Sequence record: PZ026127.1
Length of the DNA: 64,000 bases
DNA from: a phage
Direction: 5' to 3' (one strand)
The position numbers and the translations under genes were made by a program. The notes beneath the pieces were generated by a model that saw only the letters and a list, made by a program, of their open reading frames with translations, was not told the DNA's origin and searched no databases. This document shows, piece after piece, positions 21,949-58,537 of this stretch (positions within the stretch are counted from its first letter, which is position 1; each line of letters starts with the position of its first letter).

Positions 21949-22506
21949 ATGACCGAAATTAAACTGACTAAAAATAACTATGTAAATAATAAGGAGCTTC
22001 TGAAAGCTATCACCCAATGGAAAACAGAACTCAGAGAAAATACCGATCCTAATAAAATAGTTCGCCAGAACGACGTTATCGGCTTGGCTATTATGCTCAT
22101 TGCTGAAGGACTAAGTAAACGTTTCAACTTCTCAGGATATACCCAATCTTGGAAGCAAGAAATGATTGCTGATGGAATCGAAGCTTCGATTAAAGGTCTT
22201 CACAACTTCGACGAAACAAAATACGACAACCCACATGCATATATCACTATGGCTTGTTTTAATGCCTTCGTTCAGCGTATCAAAAAAGAACGTAAAGAAA
22301 TGGCAAAGAAATATAGCTACTTCGTCCATAATGTCTATGACAGTAATGATGACGACATGGTAGGTATTGCAGATGAAACCTTTATCCAAGATATCTACGA
22401 CAAAATGACTCAGTATGAAACCTCTTTAACTAAAGCACCAGGGTCTGATAAGAGTGCCGAACCTAAAGTTGGTGAACTGGATTTTTTATATGGAACATCA
22501 GATTAA
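21949..22506 (+). CDS. 55: Late-transcription sigma factor gp55
   Basis: 185 aa; very strong match to T4 gp55 (NYVNNKELL, [55 protein letters not shown]). Confidence 0.93.
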
Positions 22507-23503: not shown

Positions 23504-23647
23504 ATGGAACTACTTTTAGGATATGTCGTGTTATTCATGGCATTCTACACATTCACACGAGCCTGTTGGATAGGATTCTTTTCTACTCCTGATGGGTTCA
23601 TCTCAATAATTTTATTTTGCATTGCGATAACGGTGCTCGGCTTATGA
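23504..23647 (+). CDS. Small hydrophobic membrane peptide
   Basis: 47-aa ORF with SD GAGGAGAA; stop overlaps start of gene 47. Confidence 0.35.
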   Translation: MELLLGYVVLFMAFYTFTRACWIGFFSTPDGFISIILFCIAITVLGL

Positions 23648-24666
23648 AAATATTAAACACAGGTGACTGGCACCTTGGAGTGAAGAACGACGACCCTTGG
23701 GTGCAAAATATTCAATTGGCAGGCATTAAAGACGCCATCAATTATTCTAAAGCAAATGGTATCACTGTCTGGATTCAGTATGGTGATATTTTTGATGTTC
23801 GTAAAGCAATTACTCATAAGTGCATGGAATTTGCCAGACATATTTCAGATTTGCTTAAAGAAAATGGCATTACCATGTATACTGTTGTTGGTAACCATGA
23901 TGCACACTACAAAAATACCTTGACTCCGAACGCTGCTTCTGAAGTTCTGGGTAAATACGACCATATCAAGGTTATTGAGAAACCTACTACGGTTAATTTT
24001 GATGGTACAGAAATTGATTTGATTCCATGGATGTGTGAAGAAAACACGACCGATATCATGGACCATATCAAAAATACTACTGCCGATTTCTGTATTGGCC
24101 ACTGGGAATTAAATGGTTTCTATTTCTATAAAGGAATGAAATCACATGGTTTAGAACCTGATTTCCTTAAGAAGTATAAGCAAGTATGGTCTGGTCACTT
24201 CCACACCATTTCTGATGCAGCAAACGTCAAGTATATTGGTACGCCATGGACCCTGACTGCAGGTGATGAGAACGACCCTCGTGGCTTCTGGATTTTCGAT
24301 ACAGAAACCCATAAAATGGATTTCATCATCAATGAAACTTGTTGGCATCGTAAGATTCATTATCCGAATGCGACTATCGATTACAAAGATTTTACAAATA
24401 TTGCGGTTCGTGTTATAGTCGATAAAATTGATGACGGGCTTACCAAGTTCGAATCTGAACTTGAAAAGGTTGTTCACTCTTTACGTATTGTGTCTAAGGT
24501 AGATAACAGTGTTGATATCGATGATTCTGAAGAGGAAGATGAAGTTAAGTCCCTCTTGGATATGATGTATGATTATATCGATGCCCTTCCTGATGGCCGC
24601 ACTGAAGACGATGTTAAAGCCCTTAAGACTATGGCCGCACAACTTTATAATGAGGTTACACGATGA
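23644..24666 (+). CDS. 47: Recombination nuclease gp47 (Mre11/SbcD-like)
   Basis: Phosphoesterase motifs GDWHLG, GDIFD, GNHD, GHxH; located next to gp46 homolog. Confidence 0.88.
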   Translation: MKILNTGDWHLGVKNDDPWVQNIQLAGIKDAINYSKANGITVWIQYGDIFDVRKAITHKCMEFARHISDLLKENGITMYTVVGNHDAHYKNTLTPNAASEVLGKYDHIKVIEKPTTVNFDGTEIDLIPWMCEENTTDIMDHIKNTTADFCIGHWELNGFYFYKGMKSHGLEPDFLKKYKQVWSGHFHTISDAANVKYIGTPWTLTAGDENDPRGFWIFDTETHKMDFIINETCWHRKIHYPNATIDYKDFTNIAVRVIVDKIDDGLTKFESELEKVVHSLRIVSKVDNSVDIDDSEEEDEVKSLLDMMYDYIDALPDGRTEDDVKALKTMAAQLYNEVTR

Positions 24667-27281: not shown

Positions 27282-27980
27282 ATGAAATTCTCTAAAGAAA
27301 CTCTGAACATTCTGAAAAACTTCTCCAGTATTAACCCAGGTATCATGCTTAAGCCTGGTAACACTATTCTAACTCGTTCAGTAACGGGTGCAAGTTATGG
27401 TGAAGCTACTGTAAGCGATACCTTTGATATCGAAGCCGCAATCTACGACCTGAACGGCTTCTTAAGTATTCTGTCATTGGTATCCGATAGTGCTGAAGTT
27501 TCAGTAAGTGAAGACCAAACCACTTTAATTATTAAAGACCAACGTTCAACTATTAAGTGGCCTATTGCTGACCCAAGTACAATTGCATTCCCAAGCAAAG
27601 CTATTCCATTCCCGGTGGCTGAAGTTATTTTTGACCTTAAAGCCGAAGATTACCAACAGTTGATGCGTGTGTCCTCTGGATTGAGTATTGATACATTTGC
27701 TATCACTGTAGACAACGGTAAAATTGTAATCAATGGCTACAAACAAGTTGATGATAAGGACCTGGCACGTCCATTGTATTCCTTAGTGGTTGCAGACCAT
27801 GATGGTCCTGAATTCAAATTCATTATCAACAAAACCAATATGAAAATGATGCCTGCTGATTACCATGTATTGCTATGGGCTCGTGGTGAAGGTCAGGATG
27901 CTCGTTTCGCAGCCAAGTTTGAAGGTTCACAAGCTTCTTATGTATTGGCTATGGAAGCAGGCTCAAGCCACTCGTTCTAA
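27282..27980 (+). CDS. 45: Sliding clamp gp45
   Basis: 232 aa; strong match to T4 gp45 (LKNFxxINxGIMLK, AAIYDLNGFLxILSLVxD, KWPxADPST, MKMxPxxYxxLLWA). Confidence 0.93.
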   Translation: MKFSKETLNILKNFSSINPGIMLKPGNTILTRSVTGASYGEATVSDTFDIEAAIYDLNGFLSILSLVSDSAEVSVSEDQTTLIIKDQRSTIKWPIADPSTIAFPSKAIPFPVAEVIFDLKAEDYQQLMRVSSGLSIDTFAITVDNGKIVINGYKQVDDKDLARPLYSLVVADHDGPEFKFIINKTNMKMMPADYHVLLWARGEGQDARFAAKFEGSQASYVLAMEAGSSHSF

Positions 27981-28546
27981 TGTACATTTGCTATCATAAT
28001 ACAATAACAAATACCAAAACTAAGGATGTCTACCATTATTTCGGTAGACACCGTGTTACTCCTGAAGAATATTATGGTACTGGTAAATTTGTTAAGAAAT
28101 GCAAACGAGAAAATGCTATAACTCCTGGTGTTTGGGAGTTTAGTATTGAGATTGTCCACAAAACGGATACATTTAAAGAAGCCAAACTTATTGAAGAGGC
28201 CCTTGTTAAAGAAGGTATTGCCAAGTATGGTTCACTTTGTGTTAATAAAGCTCCCGGCGGTCCGGGTGGCGTAGATTTCCACAGTGCTGAATCTAAACGT
28301 AAGATGTCTATCACCCGAACCGGAAAATCAAGAACATTTTCCGAAAGCCATAAGCTTAATTGCTCTAAATGGCAACGCTCTGAAATATGGCAGAATTATG
28401 AAGAGCTCCATAAGATTTGGATAGAACTTGGTATGCCTAAAAAGGGTAGATTTAGTACGCTTTTACAAAATTATGGATATAATTATTCTGCAAACGAATT
28501 GAATAAAATTGTTAAACATTTTAATGAGGAAAATAATAATGAGTAA
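27980..28546 (+). CDS. Putative free-standing GIY-YIG-type homing endonuclease (Seg-like)
   Basis: Inserted between 45 and 44; N-terminal YICYHNTITNTKTKDVYHYFGRH (GIY-YIG-like), PGGPGG, NUMOD3-like repeat SAESKRKMSITRTGKSRTFSESHKLNCSK. Confidence 0.55.
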   Translation: MYICYHNTITNTKTKDVYHYFGRHRVTPEEYYGTGKFVKKCKRENAITPGVWEFSIEIVHKTDTFKEAKLIEEALVKEGIAKYGSLCVNKAPGGPGGVDFHSAESKRKMSITRTGKSRTFSESHKLNCSKWQRSEIWQNYEELHKIWIELGMPKKGRFSTLLQNYGYNYSANELNKIVKHFNEENNNE

Positions 28547-33525: not shown

Positions 33526-33762
33526 ATGGAAGCTTTAATCGTTAGTGCTGGTGTTTTAGGATTCGGTTCTCTGGTTATTATGTTCATCGGTTACTTTTTA
33601 CCATGGATTCTGGCTCTTCTGCGAGGCACTCGTAGTAATGTCGGAATTTTCTTCCTTAATCTCCTGTTAGGCTGGACGATGATTGGTTGGGTAGTGGCTT
33701 TAATCTGGGCTATCGTCGCTGAACGTAAATCAAACGCACAAATCATTATTGTTAAGCAATGA
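33526..33762 (+). CDS. Small two-helix membrane protein (Imm-like, positional)
   Basis: 78 aa, two hydrophobic helices, GW...ALIWA motif; occupies the T4 imm position after gene 43. Confidence 0.45.
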   Translation: MEALIVSAGVLGFGSLVIMFIGYFLPWILALLRGTRSNVGIFFLNLLLGWTMIGWVVALIWAIVAERKSNAQIIIVKQ

Positions 33763-33896
33763 AAATAATTATTTTATTTCTTATAATGACTGCCTTTACC
33801 ATTTATTGGGCAGTGGCAATTCCGCCAATGATTCCGACACTCATCATTGGATGGATTATTCTTATAGCACAAATTAAGTATAACTGTTTTAATTGA
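33759..33896 (+). CDS. Small hydrophobic membrane peptide
   Basis: 45-aa ORF, ATGA overlap; below track cutoff. Confidence 0.25.
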   Translation: MKIIILFLIMTAFTIYWAVAIPPMIPTLIIGWIILIAQIKYNCFN

Positions 33897-33903
33897 GGAT
33901 ATT

Positions 33904-34404
33904 ATGAAAAAGTTAATTATCGCAATGAGTATGCTCCTATCAGGTTGCGCGGTCCAATATGGTGATACAGTTTCGGCCGATGAAGTTGGTAAAGCTCGTA
34001 TCGCAGCTGAACAGAAACAATTCGATGGCGAAATGAAATTCCGTGCAGGTTCTGGACTTGTGTACACCCGAGCTAATAATCAATGCGGTAATAACTGTGC
34101 AAAATATGCTCAACAAGAAATCGAATTCCAACGTGAACAAGAGTCCAAGCGTGAAGCGGTACTAGCCAAACACCAGGCAGAAATGAAGCGTCAAGATGAT
34201 TTGTACAAAAAGCAGAAACTGTATGCGATGTGCGTAAACCATATCAATCTACAGATTTCCATCCACGAGGCTCGTTATTACGAAATGCTCGAAACCGAGA
34301 GCTTCGGTAAAGCTCGTGATTATAAGAAACAAATCGATAAGCTCAAGACCAAAGCACCGGCGGCAATAGAACAGTGTATTGAAATCGGTAAAGATAAGAT
34401 TTAA
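33904..34404 (+). CDS. Putative lipoprotein
   Basis: Signal peptide with lipobox LLSGC; coiled-coil-like remainder. Confidence 0.5.
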   Translation: MKKLIIAMSMLLSGCAVQYGDTVSADEVGKARIAAEQKQFDGEMKFRAGSGLVYTRANNQCGNNCAKYAQQEIEFQREQESKREAVLAKHQAEMKRQDDLYKKQKLYAMCVNHINLQISIHEARYYEMLETESFGKARDYKKQIDKLKTKAPAAIEQCIEIGKDKI

Positions 34405-34464
34405 GCAATACCAATTTATTAAAAATAGTGTATAATGTACCTACATTCACTTGAGGAACAGATA

Positions 34465-36138
34465 ATGAAAAAGGTTGTTATTTTAGGCGCGGGTCTTGGC
34501 TCACGGTTGTATCCAATTACCAACGAAATCCCGAAGGTACTGGTTAACTACAAACAACATACTGTATTAAAACATTTGTATGATTTGTATAGTAATCAAT
34601 CAGATGAAATTATTCTGGTTATTCACAGCAAATTTAACGACCTCGTTAAAGGCTATATTAAATCCATTAACATGATTAATAGTGATAAGCCTAAATTCAC
34701 TATTCGTAACGTTGATGTTGCCAATGGTTCGGCTCATGCTATCGATTGCATTGCCGAAGATATCATTGGGCACAATGTCTTGTTTAACTGGTGTGATATT
34801 ATTCCTGAAGGTCATAAAGTTGAGTGGGATAACGACTACTGTTATACCTATGGGACTGACTGTCGTTTTACATTTGAAGAACCGTACTTGCGTGAAATTG
34901 GTACCGGTGGTGGCGTAGTTGGCTTGTATCAGGTGGCTAATTGGACAGGTTTCGACCGTTCTAATTATGGTGAAGACCTTGCTGACAACCTGGATTCAAT
35001 GGTCCATTTGACTGAACGTAAGTTAGACTTTGTAGTTGATGTTGGTGACAAACTGAAACTGGCTAAGGCCCATGAAGATTCTGAAATTAACCGTGAATTT
35101 AATAAATTAGAGTTCACTGAGAATCTAGCTATTAAAGTACCTACAAACGAATTAGGTAAAGAAATCCAATCTAAAGAAATCAATTGGTACAATTCTATTG
35201 ATTCTGAATTCGTTCCTAGCATTGTAGACTTTGCTCCAGGTGAATTCATTAAAATGGAACGTATCTTTGGTCGAACCATGGCAGATGCCTACCGGTTTAT
35301 GTCTAAAGAAACTAAAGTCCTAATGGTTTATAAGGTTATTAGTGCATTACGTTCGTTCGGTGGAACTATCGATAATCCATCTGATGAGCAATGGTATTCT
35401 GATGTTAAGAAAGAAGTATTGGACAAGGTCCTTATTCGTAATGCTTCTATCGCCGGATTGATTGAAGGCTTTGCTCCACAGGGCATTACCCATGTTAACG
35501 ACTTTAAGGTAGGCGACCCTGAAAAACTTCTTCGCCATGCACTAGAAATTCTGTCTGAACATAAAGAACCGTACCAACTTATTCATGGCGACCCGCACTA
35601 CAGTAATATTATGTTGTCGGACGAAGGTGATATTAAAATCATCGACCCACGTGGTTATTTTGGTAATAGTTCTAAAGGCCCTGCGATTTATGATGAAGCT
35701 AAGGTGCTTTATTCTATCGATGGTTATGACAAATTTAACTCTGACCCTCTATGGGGTGGCTTAACTCGTAACGGAACTCGTGTATTCGTTGATATTGAAA
35801 AGGTTATGCCTTTAGATGATATTCCAATGTGTACATTTAAGCACAAGCTCTGGATTGCTGTTATCTGGATGGCATTGGCAGGTTACTTTAAAAATAACCC
35901 TCTGAAAGCTCTGGGTGCTTATTACAACGGTTTGTACCAACTGAGTGTGCTGCTGAAGCGACATCCTCGTAAGCGTAAGCTTATCACAGGTGAATTCGTT
36001 GATGAAGTTCGCGACCCTATCACGGCTCAAATTATCACTCGTTGTCCTGATAAGTGGGTTTTGCTTGACCAAGAAACTGGTGTAAAATATAAACCTACAG
36101 GTTCTACTGAACTCCACAAACAATGGAAGAAAATTTAA
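34465..36138 (+). CDS. Bifunctional sugar-1-phosphate nucleotidyltransferase / APH-family (anomeric sugar) kinase
   Basis: N-terminal KVVILGAGLGSRLYPIT...PKVLV matches the RmlA/GlmU-type NTase signature; C-terminal IHGDPHYSNIML (Brenner HGDxxxxN) and IIDPRG typical of APH/choline-kinase-like kinases. Confidence 0.6.
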   Translation: MKKVVILGAGLGSRLYPITNEIPKVLVNYKQHTVLKHLYDLYSNQSDEIILVIHSKFNDLVKGYIKSINMINSDKPKFTIRNVDVANGSAHAIDCIAEDIIGHNVLFNWCDIIPEGHKVEWDNDYCYTYGTDCRFTFEEPYLREIGTGGGVVGLYQVANWTGFDRSNYGEDLADNLDSMVHLTERKLDFVVDVGDKLKLAKAHEDSEINREFNKLEFTENLAIKVPTNELGKEIQSKEINWYNSIDSEFVPSIVDFAPGEFIKMERIFGRTMADAYRFMSKETKVLMVYKVISALRSFGGTIDNPSDEQWYSDVKKEVLDKVLIRNASIAGLIEGFAPQGITHVNDFKVGDPEKLLRHALEILSEHKEPYQLIHGDPHYSNIMLSDEGDIKIIDPRGYFGNSSKGPAIYDEAKVLYSIDGYDKFNSDPLWGGLTRNGTRVFVDIEKVMPLDDIPMCTFKHKLWIAVIWMALAGYFKNNPLKALGAYYNGLYQLSVLLKRHPRKRKLITGEFVDEVRDPITAQIITRCPDKWVLLDQETGVKYKPTGSTELHKQWKKI

Positions 36139-36521
36139 TGTCACATCGAGTAGAAAATAAGCCTCATTTATGTTTTGACATCGATAACACAATCACGATT
36201 TGGAACCATGACCGTGATTATGAAAACTTTAAACCGGACACCGAAATGGTGTCCATGATTAATAAGCTTTATGATGAAGGATGCGAGATTACCTTGTTCA
36301 CTGCCCGTGGTATGACTTCATGCGGTCCAGGTCGAATCTTGGTTGAAGTAGTTCCTGCATTGGTTAAGAATCTTGAAAAGATTGGATTGAAATATCATAA
36401 TCTGCTTACACATAAGCCGAGTTATACTTTTATCATCGATGACCGAGCAATCCGTCCTGACCACTTTAAAGAAATGGTTCGTGAAGGAACTCTTGAAACC
36501 TATAAGGCATATCATCCGTGA
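36138..36521 (+). CDS. HAD-superfamily phosphatase
   Basis: Motif I FDIDNTIT (DxDxT), motif II LFTARG, motif IV IIDDR; TAATG overlap with upstream gene. Confidence 0.6.
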   Translation: MSHRVENKPHLCFDIDNTITIWNHDRDYENFKPDTEMVSMINKLYDEGCEITLFTARGMTSCGPGRILVEVVPALVKNLEKIGLKYHNLLTHKPSYTFIIDDRAIRPDHFKEMVREGTLETYKAYHP

Positions 36522-37054
36522 AACCAAAAATCATTGTTATCGACGGCCCGGATAATTCCGGGAAGTCTACTTTAATTGAATCGCTTTTATCTGATAAGAA
36601 ATATCGTCTTATCGATTTCCCTAAAAAGATTAATGGTAAGTGCATTTCGATAGGGACTGATAATGACAAGGCTTTAGTCGAGACGTTGTATAAGTTTTTA
36701 GACCCTAATTTTGTCTACATCTTAGACCGTGGATATCCTAGTAATATTGTTTACTCAGGATTCCTTCGTGGTGAAATGGACCCCTATGTAGAACTGGAAG
36801 ATTGGAAAGGGTTTAAATCTGAATTCAATATTATTGAGGTTATTTTAACCCGTAATCCACTGGATAAAGACTTTGAAGATGACCTTATTAAATTAACCAA
36901 AGATGAGTTCAACCTAACTATCCGGCAATATGAAACATGTTTTGAAAACGTGTTTAAAATCTTAAATCACGACGGCCATAATAACTTGCTTAACGTCGAT
37001 ATGGTAGAATTAAAACGTCTGAATGAATATATTGAAAATAAGGTGAATAAATGA
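36518..37054 (+). CDS. P-loop kinase (thymidylate/dNMP kinase-like)
   Basis: IIVIDGPDNSGKSTL Walker A at N-terminus, DRGYPS; 178 aa. Confidence 0.5.
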   Translation: MKPKIIVIDGPDNSGKSTLIESLLSDKKYRLIDFPKKINGKCISIGTDNDKALVETLYKFLDPNFVYILDRGYPSNIVYSGFLRGEMDPYVELEDWKGFKSEFNIIEVILTRNPLDKDFEDDLIKLTKDEFNLTIRQYETCFENVFKILNHDGHNNLLNVDMVELKRLNEYIENKVNK

Positions 37055-37749
37055 AACACATTACCGCTGTTAGTTTTGAAAACGCGTTTAAGCAAATGAA
37101 CGAAGAAATCCTGGAAGCTCCACAGTTTGCAGTTGATTCTCGTATCGGCCGTTGTTATGAAATTGGTTCTGCTTCGGTAGAAGTACTGGATGCAAGCACC
37201 TATAAATTCACCGACCCTCGTATTAATCGTATCAACTATGATTATGCCGAATCTTTCTGGAAGTTTATGATTTCTGGTGGTACTGACGCCGCCGAAGCAT
37301 TTAAGGAATACCCTAATGTTGCTAAGTTCATTGATAAGCCGAAAAGTGACGTATTGCCTGCAAACTTCAACACTTTCTATGGACCTAGAATTGTGGCCCA
37401 ACTCCCAGCCTTACTTAAAGAGCTTAAAGAGAAGCCTAACTCAAGACGAGTTGTGTTCCAAATTCTCCAAGAACAAGACCAAGCCCTCCTTGATTCTGAC
37501 GAATCCTTAGAATATCCATGTACCGATTCGGTGACATATTATATTCGTGATGGACGTCTGTATGCACACACTCATATGCGTTCACAGAACTGTGCTATTG
37601 TTATGCAGCTGGATTTCTATCTGCAGGGTAAACTGATGGCCTTTATTGCTGAACAGTGTGGTGTTGGTCTGGGTACGTATTCCCATACTATGGTTAGTGC
37701 ACACGTATTTGAACGTGATTTTGACTACGTTCGAGGATTCCTGAAATGA
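37051..37749 (+). CDS. 42: dCMP hydroxymethylase (thymidylate synthase fold)
   Basis: RRVVFQI, catalytic Cys in EYPCTDS, MRSQN...LDF with Asp at the pyrimidine-discriminating position as in T4 gp42; T4 position. Confidence 0.75.
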   Translation: MKHITAVSFENAFKQMNEEILEAPQFAVDSRIGRCYEIGSASVEVLDASTYKFTDPRINRINYDYAESFWKFMISGGTDAAEAFKEYPNVAKFIDKPKSDVLPANFNTFYGPRIVAQLPALLKELKEKPNSRRVVFQILQEQDQALLDSDESLEYPCTDSVTYYIRDGRLYAHTHMRSQNCAIVMQLDFYLQGKLMAFIAEQCGVGLGTYSHTMVSAHVFERDFDYVRGFLK

Positions 37750-38639
37750 GTTTGTTTATCGTTCCTATTTTCAGTATGCGTAGTTACGAAACAGGTGAAT
37801 ATGCCGTCCTTAAGGACGGCAATTTTCAACTCCATTTAAACCGTGCTTGCCCAGGTGATTATCTGGCTTATCCTAGAAATTCGAGCGATATCAAAGAATG
37901 CATTGAATTATTTCCTGAACTGAATTTTGTACCTCTTTGGTATAAAGAAAATGCTTATGAAACTCGTAAACATTTTTGGTCTGAAAATGAGTTCGTTGTT
38001 GATTCGTTAATCGAATACTATGACTGCTCAGGATTGGTAACCGATATCACAGGTTATGATGGTGCTCATACCGTACAATTCAACTTTAACATTACAATGG
38101 ACCCTGAAGTTCCTCGTTATTACATCGATGAGTTTATTGATACCGACGTGGGTTCAGTTGAACGTTCGATTTATACTACAGTCTTGAATCAATGTCAGAA
38201 AGACGTCCTGGTGTCACGAGGTGCGTCCTCTGATAAGATTTTTGTAGACCAAAAGGTAATTAATCCTGCAGTAATTGAGCGTTACTCTGAAGGTCTAGCG
38301 CCTATTAAAATTGATGGTATTTTCCATCCATTCCGTATTTCAGATAAATGCTACCAATTCGAAAGAGTTGTAGACCAGGCTGCGGCTGAGGGTTCTCGTC
38401 TTTACATCACCGACCCGAATGATTCATTTAAGCGTGAAGACTATCGTCCTGATGTAGAGATTATTAAATTCAAACCGAGTAAGGTTGAATATTATCAGAT
38501 TCTGAAATCAAGACCTCATATCATTTATCATGAGAATCCCGGTTTAGTATTCCATCCTGGTCTGGCTGAATTCATTTATTTCGGTGCCCACATCCATTCT
38601 GAGCACGAAATGCCAAGTTATGAGGACGTGGTCCTTTAA
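37746..38639 (+). CDS. Orphan protein in beta-glucosyltransferase slot (candidate DNA glycosyltransferase)
   Basis: 297 aa between 42 and uvsX, where T4 has beta-gt; no resemblance to T4 alpha- or beta-gt that I can recognise. Confidence 0.3.
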   Translation: MSLFIVPIFSMRSYETGEYAVLKDGNFQLHLNRACPGDYLAYPRNSSDIKECIELFPELNFVPLWYKENAYETRKHFWSENEFVVDSLIEYYDCSGLVTDITGYDGAHTVQFNFNITMDPEVPRYYIDEFIDTDVGSVERSIYTTVLNQCQKDVLVSRGASSDKIFVDQKVINPAVIERYSEGLAPIKIDGIFHPFRISDKCYQFERVVDQAAAEGSRLYITDPNDSFKREDYRPDVEIIKFKPSKVEYYQILKSRPHIIYHENPGLVFHPGLAEFIYFGAHIHSEHEMPSYEDVVL

Positions 38640-45320: not shown

Positions 45321-45839
45321 ATGGCATACTTTAACGAATGCGCAAACCTGATTGATGGTGTTGATAAAGCTGAGGAAGCTTATTTTAATGCTCTGATTCA
45401 TGAAGATAAAGACCCTCTGCAAGTTATGCTTGATATGCAGAAATCTTTACAGGTTCGTTTGGCTAATGACCGTGAATATTGTTACCATCCGGACAAATTA
45501 GCGACAGCCGGTGATGTTGTTGCTTGGATGCGTGAACAGAAAGATTGTATTGACGATGAATTCCGTGAACTTCTGACTTCCCTCGGTGAAATGTCTAAAG
45601 GTGAGAAAGATGCATCTGCTGTATGGAAAAAATGGAAAGCCCGTTACCCGGAAGCACAAGCCAAACCTATTTCAGAAATGTCTCCTGAAGACCAGCTTGA
45701 AATTAAATTTGAACTCATTGATATTATGCACTTCGTATTCAATATGGCTATTGGCCTGAATATGTCGGCTGAAGAAATGTTTAAACTTTATTATCTGAAG
45801 AATGCTGAAAACTTTGCAAGGCAGGACCGTGGCTATTAA
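45321..45839 (+). CDS. 56: dCTP pyrophosphatase gp56
   Basis: 172 aa; very strong match to T4 gp56 (MAxFNECA, LQVMLDMQ, CYHPDKL, WMREQKDCIDDEFRELLTSLGEM, KWKARY, YYLKNxENFARQDRGY). Confidence 0.93.
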   Translation: MAYFNECANLIDGVDKAEEAYFNALIHEDKDPLQVMLDMQKSLQVRLANDREYCYHPDKLATAGDVVAWMREQKDCIDDEFRELLTSLGEMSKGEKDASAVWKKWKARYPEAQAKPISEMSPEDQLEIKFELIDIMHFVFNMAIGLNMSAEEMFKLYYLKNAENFARQDRGY

Positions 45840-46497
45840 GGCTAAGTTTTATAGAACTTATTTGATAAAAATTAGGACGCCGAAAGGTGTCTTTTGGTAT
45901 GGTGGTAAACATGAAACCTTTATACTAAATCCAAATAAAGATAGATATCCAGGTTCTGGCAAAATCTTATGGAATATGTATAAAAAGTATGGTCTAAAAT
46001 ATAAAATACGTTGGTTTGTAGGCCACCAAAATTTAGAAGAATCTTTTAATCATGAAAGACTTTTAATAGCCAAAATAAGAGAAAAGCATCCTAACGAATG
46101 CTTGAATATATTACCAGGTGGCGCTGGCAGCGAAGGACATAAATGGACTGAAGAACAGTGTATAGAGCACAAGCTTAGATTAAATAAACCTGAAACTAAG
46201 ATTAAAATGAGGAAGGCTCAAGCTATAGCTCAGAATAGGCCTGAACGTAAAGCTCGTCAATCAGAAATAATGAAAGAGTTTTATGAGAATGGTGGGAATA
46301 AATTAATATCTGAAGCCACTTCTAAAGCTCAACGAACTGCTCCTCATTGGCATGAACCATTGAAAAGCGAAATCTATAATATTTGGCTTTCATTAGGTAA
46401 ACCAACTACAGGTCCTGTAGTCAAAGAACTTAAAGGTAAATATGACGTTACCGCAAGTGCTCTCAAAAATTTAATATACTCTTTTAGAGATATATAA
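45802..46497 (+). CDS. Putative free-standing GIY-YIG-type homing endonuclease (Seg-like)
   Basis: N-terminal YRTYLIKIRTPKGVFWYGGKH, LPGGAGS, NUMOD3-like HKWTEEQCIEHKLRLNK; overlaps 3' end of 56; start uncertain (ATG 45802 or GTG 45829). Confidence 0.5.
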   Translation: MLKTLQGRTVAIKAKFYRTYLIKIRTPKGVFWYGGKHETFILNPNKDRYPGSGKILWNMYKKYGLKYKIRWFVGHQNLEESFNHERLLIAKIREKHPNECLNILPGGAGSEGHKWTEEQCIEHKLRLNKPETKIKMRKAQAIAQNRPERKARQSEIMKEFYENGGNKLISEATSKAQRTAPHWHEPLKSEIYNIWLSLGKPTTGPVVKELKGKYDVTASALKNLIYSFRDI

Positions 46498-56117: not shown

Positions 56118-57935
56118 ATGATTAAGAATGAAATTAAAGTACTGTCCGACATTGAACATATCAAAAAACGTAGTGGGATGTATATTGGCTCAAGTGCTAA
56201 TGAAGCTCACAGTCGATTCCTGTTTGGTAATTTTACACAGGTAAACTATGTTCCTGGACTGGTTAAATTAATTGATGAAATCATTGATAACTCTGTCGAT
56301 GAAGCTATTCGTACCAATTTTAAATTCGCAAATAAAATTGATGTTCAAATTAAGAATAACCAGGTTTCAGTTTCTGATAATGGTCGTGGTATTCCACAAG
56401 CAATGGTCACCGACCAAAATGGTGAACAGATTCCAGGTCCTGTAGCTGCATGGACTATTCCAAAGGCAGGTGGTAACTTTGGAGATGACGCTGAGCGTAA
56501 GACAGGCGGCATGAATGGTGTCGGTAGTAGTTTAACTAATATCTTCTCTGTTTTGTTCACAGGCATCACCTCTGATGGTGAGAATGAGATTACTGTTAAC
56601 TGTTCAAACGGAATGGAAAACAAAGGTTGGTCTACTAAGAAATCTAAAGGTAAGGGTACTTCGGTTATATTCACCCCAGACTTTAATCATTTCGAAGAAA
56701 ATAGCCTGTCACAAATTTATCTGGATATTACATTAGACCGATTGCAAACTCTGGCCGTAGTTTATCCTGATATTCAATTTACTTTTAATGGTAAAAAAGT
56801 AGATGGCAACTTTAAAAAGTATGCTAAGCAATTTGGTGAAGACTTTGTAATCCAAGAAACCGATAATGTTTCGATGGCATTTACTCCTTCTCCGGATGGA
56901 TTCCGTCAACTGACTTATGTAAACAATATCCACACCAAGAATGGTGGCCACCACGTTGAATGCGTATTCGATGATATTTGTGAACACCTTCTGCCAGGCA
57001 TTAAAAAGAAATACCGTGGAATTGAAGTAACTAAAGCTCGTGTTAAAGAATGCCTTACGATGGTGATGTTCATTCGTGATATGAGCAACATGCGTTTTGA
57101 TTCACAGACTAAAGAACGTTTGACCTCTCCTTTTGGTGAGATTCGCAATCATATCCAAATTGATGCTAAGAAAATTGCTCAAGCCATTCTTAAAGTTGAT
57201 GGGTTGATTATGCCTATCGTTGAAGCTGCTTTAGCACGTAAATTAGCAGCTGAAAAGGCTGCCGAAACTAAAGCCGCTAAGAAAGCTTCTAAAGCCAAGG
57301 TCCATAAGCATATTAAAGCTAACCTATACGGCAAAGATGCTGATACAACCCTGTTCCTAACCGAAGGTGATTCCGCTATGGGTCCTTTCATTGAAGTTCG
57401 TAATAAAGACCTTCAAGGTGGTTACCCATTGCGTGGTAAGGTTATGAATACCTGGGGAATGACAGCAACAGATATCATGAAGAACAAGGAACTATTTGAT
57501 ATCTGTGCAATCACTGGACTTGTTATTGGCGAACCTGCAGAGAAAACTAACTATCGTAATATCGCTATTATGACTGATGCTGATGTGGATGGTACTGGTT
57601 CGATTTATCCATCATTGCTAGCCTTCTTTAGTCAATGGCCCGAATTGTTCGAACAAGGCCGAGTACGGTTCTGTAAAACTCCGGTGATTATTGCCCAGGT
57701 TGGTAAAGAACAGGAATGGTTCTATGACGTTCCTAGTTATACCAAAGCTAAGGACTCTCTACCAAAACATTCTATTCGGTACATCAAAGGACTAGGTTCT
57801 CTTGAGAAAGCTGAATATCGTCGAATGATTCAAGACCCTAAATTTGATGTGGTTCAATTACCTGAAGATTGGAAAGAACAGTTCGAAATGCTCCTTGGTA
57901 ATGACCCACAACTCCGTAAGGCCTGGATGTCGTAA
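56118..57935 (+). CDS. 39: DNA topoisomerase II large subunit (uninterrupted 39/60 form)
   Basis: 605 aa; GHKL ATPase N-terminus (IDNSVDE, GRGIP, GxxGxG) and Toprim-like EGDSA; single ORF rather than T4's split 39 + 60. Confidence 0.88.
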   Translation: MIKNEIKVLSDIEHIKKRSGMYIGSSANEAHSRFLFGNFTQVNYVPGLVKLIDEIIDNSVDEAIRTNFKFANKIDVQIKNNQVSVSDNGRGIPQAMVTDQNGEQIPGPVAAWTIPKAGGNFGDDAERKTGGMNGVGSSLTNIFSVLFTGITSDGENEITVNCSNGMENKGWSTKKSKGKGTSVIFTPDFNHFEENSLSQIYLDITLDRLQTLAVVYPDIQFTFNGKKVDGNFKKYAKQFGEDFVIQETDNVSMAFTPSPDGFRQLTYVNNIHTKNGGHHVECVFDDICEHLLPGIKKKYRGIEVTKARVKECLTMVMFIRDMSNMRFDSQTKERLTSPFGEIRNHIQIDAKKIAQAILKVDGLIMPIVEAALARKLAAEKAAETKAAKKASKAKVHKHIKANLYGKDADTTLFLTEGDSAMGPFIEVRNKDLQGGYPLRGKVMNTWGMTATDIMKNKELFDICAITGLVIGEPAEKTNYRNIAIMTDADVDGTGSIYPSLLAFFSQWPELFEQGRVRFCKTPVIIAQVGKEQEWFYDVPSYTKAKDSLPKHSIRYIKGLGSLEKAEYRRMIQDPKFDVVQLPEDWKEQFEMLLGNDPQLRKAWMS

Positions 57936-57940
57936 TAAAT

Positions 57941-58141
57941 ATGTATGGTACTAATTGGTGCCATACAAAAGGAGACTTTATGAGAAAGTACTGGGTTACG
58001 CTCGTCACCGGTGAATACGGTTATATCTGGACTGATACTAGACCTCAGTTTGCAGAATACGTGACTATTACAGTCGAGACATGGGACGGCGAAGTTTACC
58101 AAACCCGCGGACAAGTCTATAAGGTCGATTCAAGTAACTAA
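57941..58141 (+). CDS. Hypothetical protein
   Basis: 66-aa ORF. Confidence 0.35.
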   Translation: MYGTNWCHTKGDFMRKYWVTLVTGEYGYIWTDTRPQFAEYVTITVETWDGEVYQTRGQVYKVDSSN

Positions 58142-58142
58142 T

Positions 58143-58163
58143 AAGGGCCTTCGGGCCCTTTTC
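58143..58163 (+). terminator. Rho-independent terminator (UUCG tetraloop)
   Basis: GGGCC-TTCG-GGCCC followed by TTTT. Confidence 0.55.
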
Positions 58164-58213
58164 GGGGTTTACAAAGACCTGTGGTTATGATAGGATTATT
58201 TAGAGGTGAGAAT

Positions 58214-58537
58214 ATGATTATGCAAGATAACAGTATAGTGAACACTGACAACCTGGCTCTATCCTTTATGGAAACAGCCATTCGTAACTGTAAGGACGAA
58301 GGAGTAGTGACTACAAGCGGTAAGGGACTTGAATACCTTAAGGCTGTAAAATCTATTGCCTTAAAGATTAAAGATAACCAGGCGCTCTCTCCTGTTGTCC
58401 AGGAAAAGGTTTTAGAGATAATGTATCGCCACAGAGAGCACAAAAGTACAATGGGTTCTATGAGAAGAATTCTGGCTGAACTAGGTTCTACCAGAGAATA
58501 TGTTCAACATGAGGTAGTTAAAAATGACAAACTTTAA
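58214..58537 (+). CDS. Hypothetical protein
   Basis: Start at ATG 58214 downstream of GTTTAC promoter and SD GAGGTGAG. Confidence 0.4.
   Translation: MIMQDNSIVNTDNLALSFMETAIRNCKDEGVVTTSGKGLEYLKAVKSIALKIKDNQALSPVVQEKVLEIMYRHREHKSTMGSMRRILAELGSTREYVQHEVVKNDKL

Follow-up and report, generated by a model that had tools for sequence, protein, structure and literature searches.

The closest described relatives of the locus analysed here are phage gene clusters for arabinosyl-5-hydroxycytosine (ara-5hoC) DNA, known from Mosigvirus RB69 (gp45-gp55 plus gp3), E. coli phage HY126 (the Afh genes) and Acinetobacter phage DLP3 (gp76-83) (PMC13326640; Lee et al., NAR 2026). The base is produced by RB69 gp48 and DLP3 gp80, thymidylate synthase (TS) homologues that bind flavin, use O2 and make 5-hydroxycytosine (5hoC) at the mononucleotide level; their activity, and NMR of ara-5hoC, have been published (PMC13326640). 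The locus itself occupies positions 34465-38639 of a 64,000-nucleotide stretch of phage DNA (sequence record PZ026127.1; "the window" refers to this whole stretch), which comes from a T4-like coliphage of the genus Dhakavirus, with 96-98% nucleotide identity to WG01, QL01 and Bp7. With a probability of about 0.8, we read it as a five-gene Dhakavirus cassette for arabinosylated 5hoC DNA, a version of the RB69/HY126/DLP3 system. Mahler et al. (Cell Host Microbe 2025) and He et al. are reportedly further sources on ara-5hoC, and their results are used here to the extent that Lee et al. (NAR 2026) relate them.

Biochemistry has been published for AfhE and AfhF of HY126 and, as far as it is reported in PMC13326640, it assigns to the AfhE-like RB69 gp52:53 the C1 phosphorylation of arabinose-5-phosphate (A5P) and the later synthesis of UDP-arabinofuranose (UDP-Araf), and to the AfhF-like HAD protein RB69 gp51 the removal of the 5-phosphate. 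The route outlined there runs from A5P through arabinose-1,5-bisphosphate (Ara-1,5-P2) and arabinose-1-phosphate (Ara-1-P) to UDP-Araf (PMC13326640). In the same work RB69 gp55 is an A5P isomerase and gp45 a Tmk-like nucleotide kinase without an assigned role, gp46:47 is the proposed base-proximal arabinosyltransferase and gp3 a proposed second one, and DLP3 gp79 is the orthologue of the base-proximal glycosyltransferase (GT), with gp76/77 as additional GTs (PMC13326640). Dhakaviruses are named among the groups carrying a syntenic cluster, as a prediction from comparative genomics (PMC13326640). Earlier hints concerned the fusion gene of Dhakavirus IME08, noted in 2018 (PMC6024577), and the lack of glucosyltransferases in JS98, noted in 2010 (PMC2993671). 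The ara-5hoC system is therefore already known, its pathway having been described in related phages in 2025-2026 with Dhakaviruses listed.

All five proteins encoded at 34465-38639 found their best match in the RB69 cluster, at 79% identity for the TS homologue, 64-70% for the glycosyltransferase, 63% for the HAD protein, 41-44% for the fusion protein and 37% for the Tmk-like kinase. As in RB69, HY126 and DLP3, a predicted 5-hydroxy-dCMP (5hodCMP) synthase with the D169N substitution, a base-proximal GT-B transferase, a fused kinase/nucleotidyltransferase, a HAD phosphatase and a Tmk-like kinase lie in the slot between DNA polymerase and uvsX (from 38717, + strand), with an accessory dCTPase elsewhere. 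The five genes share four overlapping stop/start junctions (TAATG, GTGA, ATGA and ATGA) and are translationally coupled. The block is 94-98% identical in nucleotide sequence in more than 50 Dhakavirus genomes, including WG01, QL01, MX01, Bp7 and IME08, and its conservation at the protein level spans many genera, indicating that these are real genes and not chance open reading frames (ORFs). An initial annotation of the window had described a module for making a nucleotide sugar and transferring it to hydroxymethylated DNA. The ORFs it named are present on the + strand, Pfam and NCBIfam profiles together with sequence motifs upheld its domain calls, and the assignment of sugar-activation and transfer genes stands; the acceptor base, the free-sugar starting point and the inclusion of a lipoprotein do not.

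The TS homologue (37051-37749, + strand, 232 aa) matches the Pfam family Thymidylat_synt (4.8e-14) and had been taken for a dCMP hydroxymethylase, with 5-hydroxymethylcytosine (hmC) as the DNA base. It would then be an enzyme of the T4 gp42 type, and a sugar nucleotide made by the phage would be transferred to the hydroxymethyl group to give arabinosyl-hmC or a similar product. The family match itself agrees with this, as do the substrate-specifying substitutions N177D and L143E (E. coli ThyA numbering), which are common to gp42, and the older literature, in which RB69 had ara-hmC (PMC6024577) and JS98 a 'gene 42' allele (PMC2993671). By tblastn, however, the protein is 79% identical to RB69 gp48, an experimentally characterised 5hodCMP synthase, whereas its identity to T4 gp42 is just 25% (over 159 aa). 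The window protein was aligned by MAFFT with E. coli ThyA, T4 gp42, RB69 gp48 and the td of the phage itself, and its key residues were E154 (L143E), the catalytic C157 (C146), N180 (D169N, nt 37588-37590) and D188 (N177D). The published diagnostic of a 5hodCMP synthase is Asn in place of Asp169 together with N177D, the latter conferring dCMP specificity (PMC13326640). T4 gp42 retains Asp at position 169, and the window protein is the same as RB69 gp48 at 12 of the 12 active-site positions listed in PMC13326640.

Searches of other collections gave the same picture. The best PDB sequence matches were 9iqu, 9iqc and 9ir2 (234-238 aa, E ~1e-125), phage 'thymidylate synthase' entries from about 2025 and presumably, in view of the 79% identity, the HY126 enzyme whose structure is mentioned in PMC13326640; the T4 dCMP hydroxymethylase 1b49 was found at 4.7e-6. 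When the phage collection was searched by tblastn, 428 records matched and, among the matches listed, a sample spread down the ranking, there were Mosigvirus, Acinetobacter, Serratia, Klebsiella and Rhizobium phages and no T4-type gp42 phage. With Asn at the Asp position of gp42 and 25% identity, the protein lacks the marks of a folate-dependent dCMP hydroxymethylase of the gp42 type; it should instead yield 5-hydroxy-dCMP, so that the DNA base would be 5hoC with an ether-linked sugar rather than hmC. The arabinosyl-hmC of RB69, to which the initial annotation had appealed as a precedent, has moreover been explicitly corrected in the literature to ara-5hoC. An hmC base in this phage is thus very improbable.

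In the pathway that we propose, gp56 dCTPase/dUTPase (45321-45839, + strand, 78% identical to WG01 gp56) would remove dCTP and supply dCMP. The gene lies outside the cluster, and the role of gp56 is described for T4-type phages (PMC2993671) and for RB69/DLP3 (PMC13326640). The TS homologue would hydroxylate dCMP at C5 with flavin and O2. The resulting 5-hydroxy-dCMP would be raised to the triphosphate by the phage dNMP kinase gp1, which falls outside the window and is present in WG01, together with host NDP kinase, and would be inserted by the phage polymerase instead of dCTP; RB69 gp1 is active on 5hodCMP (PMC13326640). This scheme has much in common with the T4 hmC system (gp42, alpha-gt, beta-gt, gp56 and gp1), namely a dCTPase, a C5 modification of dCMP by a TS-family enzyme, incorporation, GT-B transfer and a neighbourhood of gene 43, imm, modification genes and uvsX. 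T4, however, hydroxymethylates with folate and places glucose on the hydroxymethyl group, whereas the window system would hydroxylate with flavin and O2 and would carry an ether-linked pentose. Since UDP-arabinose is not a host metabolite, this phage, unlike T4, would have to make its own UDP-sugar.

The first gene of the cassette (34465-36138, + strand, 557 aa; AfhE-like, orthologue of RB69 gp53:52) encodes the fused nucleotidyltransferase/APH-type kinase that had been annotated, with Pfam matches to NTP_transferase (2.5e-8) and APH (1.3e-5). Its N-terminal nucleotidyltransferase domain carries GAGLGSR (aa 8-14) and matched NCBIfam models of sugar-1-phosphate nucleotidyltransferases, MurU included, and its C-terminal APH/choline-kinase-like domain carries HGDPHYSN (aa 374-381) and IIDPRG (aa 392-397). 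Over the full length the protein is 44% and 41% identical to RB69 gp53 and gp52 and matches phrog_4098 (E 3e-269); it is 79% identical to its counterpart in Klebsiella phage Marfa. A PDB sequence search with it returned distant nucleotidyltransferases only and no structure of the AfhE type. The start at 34465 had been chosen correctly, being conserved, preceded by a GAGG Shine-Dalgarno sequence and in agreement with RB69 and with the annotation of WG01. An upstream ATG at 34435, which gives the longest ORF, was rejected as the start, as it sits in a TATAAT-like element, GTGTATAATG.

The HAD phosphatase (36138-36521, + strand, an ORF of 127-132 aa; AfhF-like, orthologue of RB69 gp51) has the catalytic motif DIDNT (aa 14-18), and its gene most likely starts at 36138, where its putative start codon overlaps the upstream stop in TAATG. 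It matched the NCBIfam capsule biosynthesis phosphatase model TIGR01689 (4e-14), HAD-IIIA and phrog_1238, and is 63% identical to RB69 gp51 and 86% to the Marfa protein. The Tmk-like P-loop nucleotide kinase (36518-37054, + strand; orthologue of RB69 gp45) begins with GTG in the GTGA overlap and shows a Walker A sequence, GPDNSGKS (aa 10-17). It matched phrog_761 'thymidylate kinase' (3e-39) with weak Pfam and NCBIfam matches to Tmk/Cmk P-loop families, and is 37% identical to RB69 gp45 (E 1e-33) and 84% to the Marfa protein. The motifs and family matches of both proteins bear out their earlier description as a HAD phosphatase and a P-loop kinase.

Following the published route, the fusion protein would use its kinase domain to phosphorylate host-derived A5P at C1 to Ara-1,5-P2, the HAD phosphatase would take off the 5-phosphate to leave Ara-1-P, and the nucleotidyltransferase domain would convert this to UDP-arabinofuranose. 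The sugar had been considered unreadable from the sequence; by orthology it can be inferred to be arabinofuranose derived from A5P. Likewise, the free sugar that the initial annotation had allowed as a starting point is replaced by A5P, at which the published route begins.

The kinase/nucleotidyltransferase, HAD and GT genes might in principle serve a target other than DNA, in wall recycling of the AmgK/MurU kind, capsule or lipopolysaccharide (LPS), and be accidental neighbours of nucleotide-metabolism genes. The nucleotidyltransferase domain does resemble MurU and other sugar-1-phosphate nucleotidyltransferases, the best family of the HAD protein is a capsule biosynthesis phosphatase, and the fold neighbours of the 297-aa transferase described below are LPS and cell-envelope transferases. 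Pseudomonas AmgK/MurU, like the window fusion, combine an APH-like sugar kinase with a minimal sugar-1-phosphate uridylyltransferase, and MurU is a fold and sequence neighbour of the nucleotidyltransferase domain; there, however, kinase and uridylyltransferase are two proteins whose substrate is MurNAc for peptidoglycan, whereas the window has one fused protein tied to DNA modification by orthology and synteny. Against a non-DNA target, the genes are translationally coupled to the predicted 5hodCMP synthase, are found across many genera only in company with this synthase, in the interval from gene 43 to uvsX, and are jointly absent in Gaprivervirus. Their HY126, RB69 and DLP3 orthologues have been tied experimentally to DNA arabinosylation. 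We therefore regard such a function as extremely unlikely.

The last gene of the cassette (37746-38639, + strand) encodes the 297-aa protein which had been proposed as a transferase from its position in the beta-gt slot. This proposal was borne out, the protein being 70% identical to RB69 gp47 and 64% to RB69 gp46, which are a single gene divided by a sequencing error; the ORF itself gave no family match. It is the orthologue of RB69 gp47:46 (arabinosyltransferase 1), a GT-B glycosyltransferase of the base-proximal type immediately downstream of the synthase, and it would place one arabinose onto the 5-hydroxyl through an ether bond.

We searched the whole window and the complete WG01 genome (169,936 bp) by tblastn with RB69 gp55, gp50, gp49 and gp3 and with T4 alpha-gt and beta-gt. 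There was no match in either for the A5P isomerase (gp55), for the U32 'peptidase' (gp50) or gp49, or for the T4 alpha-gt and beta-gt. The interval between gene 55 (21949-22503) and gene 47 (23644-24663) holds small ORFs only, in line with the earlier remark that no alpha-gt lies there. The second transferase gp3, which in RB69 lies between rIIA.1 and gene 39, likewise had no match in WG01 or anywhere in the window, the corresponding rIIA.1-gene 39 interval (57932-58524) included. The window cassette thus differs from that of RB69 in lacking gp55, gp50, gp49 and gp3, in having its Tmk-like gene upstream of the synthase where that of RB69 is downstream of the transferase, and in its sugar-activation genes, which form a diverged subtype with about 40% identity.

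Marfa is also without the isomerase, which argues that the A5P isomerase is an accessory and not a universal feature of these clusters. Enterobacterial hosts make A5P for the synthesis of 3-deoxy-D-manno-octulosonate (Kdo), and in a phage with no isomerase of its own the A5P is predicted to come from this host pathway (KdsD/GutQ). The presence of a single glycosyltransferase predicts mono-arabinosyl-5hoC, as in phage Thanatos, which has a single GT and is mono-arabinosylated (PMC13326640). The predicted product contrasts with the di- or tri-arabinosylated DNA of RB69 and DLP3; extra GTs mark poly-arabinosyl variants only.

We compared the layout of the cluster in Kanagawavirus, Tegunavirus, Winklervirus, Mosigvirus and Marfavirus. 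Four of the five genera (Kanagawavirus, Tegunavirus, Winklervirus and Mosigvirus) have the order isomerase, fusion, HAD, U32, TS, GT1, Tmk, whereas Marfavirus has fusion, HAD, Tmk, U32, TS, GT1 without the isomerase; TS followed by GT1 is constant in all five. The fusion, HAD and Tmk proteins of the window (34465-37054) are 79-86% identical to those of Marfa (locus L010, 3963-6631) and 37-69% identical to those of the RB69/CIP9/TG1/CHI14 type (loci L001, L009, L011 and L012), while TS (79-85%) and GT1 (63-70%) are about equally close to all five genera. These identities indicate that the sugar-activation block exists as two subtypes. Klebsiella phage Marfa has the closest cassette, with the fusion-HAD-Tmk order, no A5P isomerase, and TS and GT1 following; it differs in having a U32 homologue after the Tmk-like gene and ahead of the synthase, and in the absence of imm and the lipoprotein upstream. 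In gene content, the Dhakavirus cassette is the Marfavirus subtype minus the U32 gene and the smallest among the versions compared. In the sister genus Gaprivervirus the cassette is missing in its entirety, the TS homologue along with it.

The position of the Tmk-like gene also varies, following GT1 in the RB69/CIP9/TG1/CHI14 type and adjoining the fusion and HAD genes in Dhakavirus and Marfavirus. The kinase is thus co-inherited with the sugar genes and not with the synthase and transferase.

The U32-family 'peptidase', absent from the window, is present in most ara-5hoC clusters and is 83-89% identical between genera (L001 6493-7662, RB69 gp50; L009 10446-11612; L010 6779-7939; L011 6323-7489; L012 6494-7663). 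Among the members of this family are RlhA, TrhP and UbiU/V, which take part in O2-independent hydroxylation, including the formation of 5-hydroxycytidine in rRNA. The phage protein might be an anaerobic 5hoC route that Dhakaviruses lack. It is not required for the product, since tri-arabinosyl-5hoC is formed in DLP3, which has no U32 gene (PMC13326640).

The two subtypes bear on the identity of the sugar. The base might be 5hoC as proposed while the Dhakavirus/Marfavirus genes activate a sugar other than arabinose, giving a different glycosyl-5hoC. In keeping with this, the fusion, HAD and Tmk proteins are 79-86% identical to those of Marfa and about 37-69% to those of the RB69 type, both Dhakavirus and Marfavirus are without the isomerase that marks the arabinose route, and the 5hoC of Rhizobium phage RL38J1 bears hexoses (PMC13326640). 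However, the GT is no more diverged from the RB69-type GT1 (63-70%) than from that of Marfa (69%), a pattern that speaks against a switch to another donor, the enterobacterial A5P available for Kdo makes a phage isomerase dispensable, and the catalytic motifs are intact in both domains of the fusion. We consider a different sugar unlikely. We would give similarly little weight to the broader form of this idea, in which the Dhakavirus/Marfavirus block, inherited as a unit, may be something other than a pared-down RB69 route and may activate another sugar phosphate, or the Tmk-like kinase may take part in glycosylation at the nucleotide level, leaving an undescribed glycosyl-5hoC in the virion DNA.

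Four points weigh against an ara-5hoC cassette as set out here. The fusion protein is only 41-44% identical to the RB69 type, and the fusion, HAD and Tmk genes are of a subtype shared with Marfavirus, both lacking the A5P isomerase; with sugar-activation genes so diverged, identity of the substrate is not guaranteed. The Tmk-like kinase has no place in the proposed scheme, nor an assigned role in the published systems. In those systems, single transferases failed to act on 5hoC DNA in vitro, so that the first arabinose may be placed either on DNA or on the mononucleotide (PMC13326640). Finally, a literature search for the chemistry of Dhakavirus virion DNA (JS98, IME08 and Bp7) found none. On balance, the assignment of ara-5hoC to Dhakaviruses is a strong prediction: orthology, signature residues, the transferase fold, gene content and synteny were shown here, and every enzymatic step, the nature of the sugar and the number of sugars are inferred.

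The value of this assignment is mostly one of annotation, older reviews counting the JS98 group as hmC phages. In WG01, QL01, MX01 and Bp7 the HAD gene is publicly named 'phosphoheptose isomerase' and the synthase 'thymidylate synthase', and public Dhakavirus annotations also contain the label 'thymidylate kinase' and give the transferase and the fusion as 'hypothetical protein'. Given what was published in 2025-2026, these RefSeq names are misleading. DNA modified in this way is expected to withstand many type II restriction enzymes as well as Cas nucleases, and an ara-5hoC reading alters what is predicted about the restriction, CRISPR and type IV defences that Dhakaviruses evade or trigger, about sequencing and cloning behaviour and about recombination with hmC phages. 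Phages of this genus are frequently isolated as candidates for therapy against enteric and avian E. coli. Having neither isomerase, U32 gene nor second transferase, the five-gene form is also a convenient minimal set for reconstitution and a natural test of whether a single transferase gives mono-arabinosylation.

Upstream of the cassette lie imm (33526-33762, + strand; Pfam Imm_superinfect, 5e-18), a small hydrophobic ORF (33786-33896, + strand, 36 aa, MTAFTIYWAVAIPPMIPTLIIGWIILIAQIKYNCFN) and a lipoprotein-like ORF (33904-34404, + strand, 166 aa). The 36-aa ORF, 58% identical to RB69 gp54 and a match to phrog_3610, encodes a small, conserved membrane peptide in the imm/lipoprotein interval and is left out of the WG01 annotation. 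The lipoprotein has a signal peptide with the lipobox LSGC, followed by a Lys/Glu/Gln-rich and probably helical stretch, and its sole family match is phrog_1754. It had been counted as part of the modification module. Its homologue in Gaprivervirus VR20 (50% identity), however, sits between imm and uvsX in a region without the TS homologue, kinase, phosphatase and transferase, which rules out membership of the sugar pathway. The lipoprotein is kept next to imm in Dhakavirus and Gaprivervirus, with more distant versions in Kanagawavirus and Winklervirus. It thus travels with imm and not with the modification genes, and its position beside imm suggests a role in the envelope or in superinfection exclusion.

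A consensus scan for promoters and terminators gave 17 promoter-like sites, against 17.5 expected, and is therefore uninformative. Two further ORFs, 27980-28546 (188 aa) and 45802-46497 (231 aa), both on the + strand, are not found in the close relative WG01 and match phrog_314 'homing endonuclease' (E 6.5e-16 and 9.4e-20, respectively). The former lies between genes 45 and 44 and the latter directly after gene 56. The gp56 beside this second ORF is only 78% identical to that of WG01, whereas the flanks are ~97% identical in nucleotide sequence, which would fit an exchange around a homing site.

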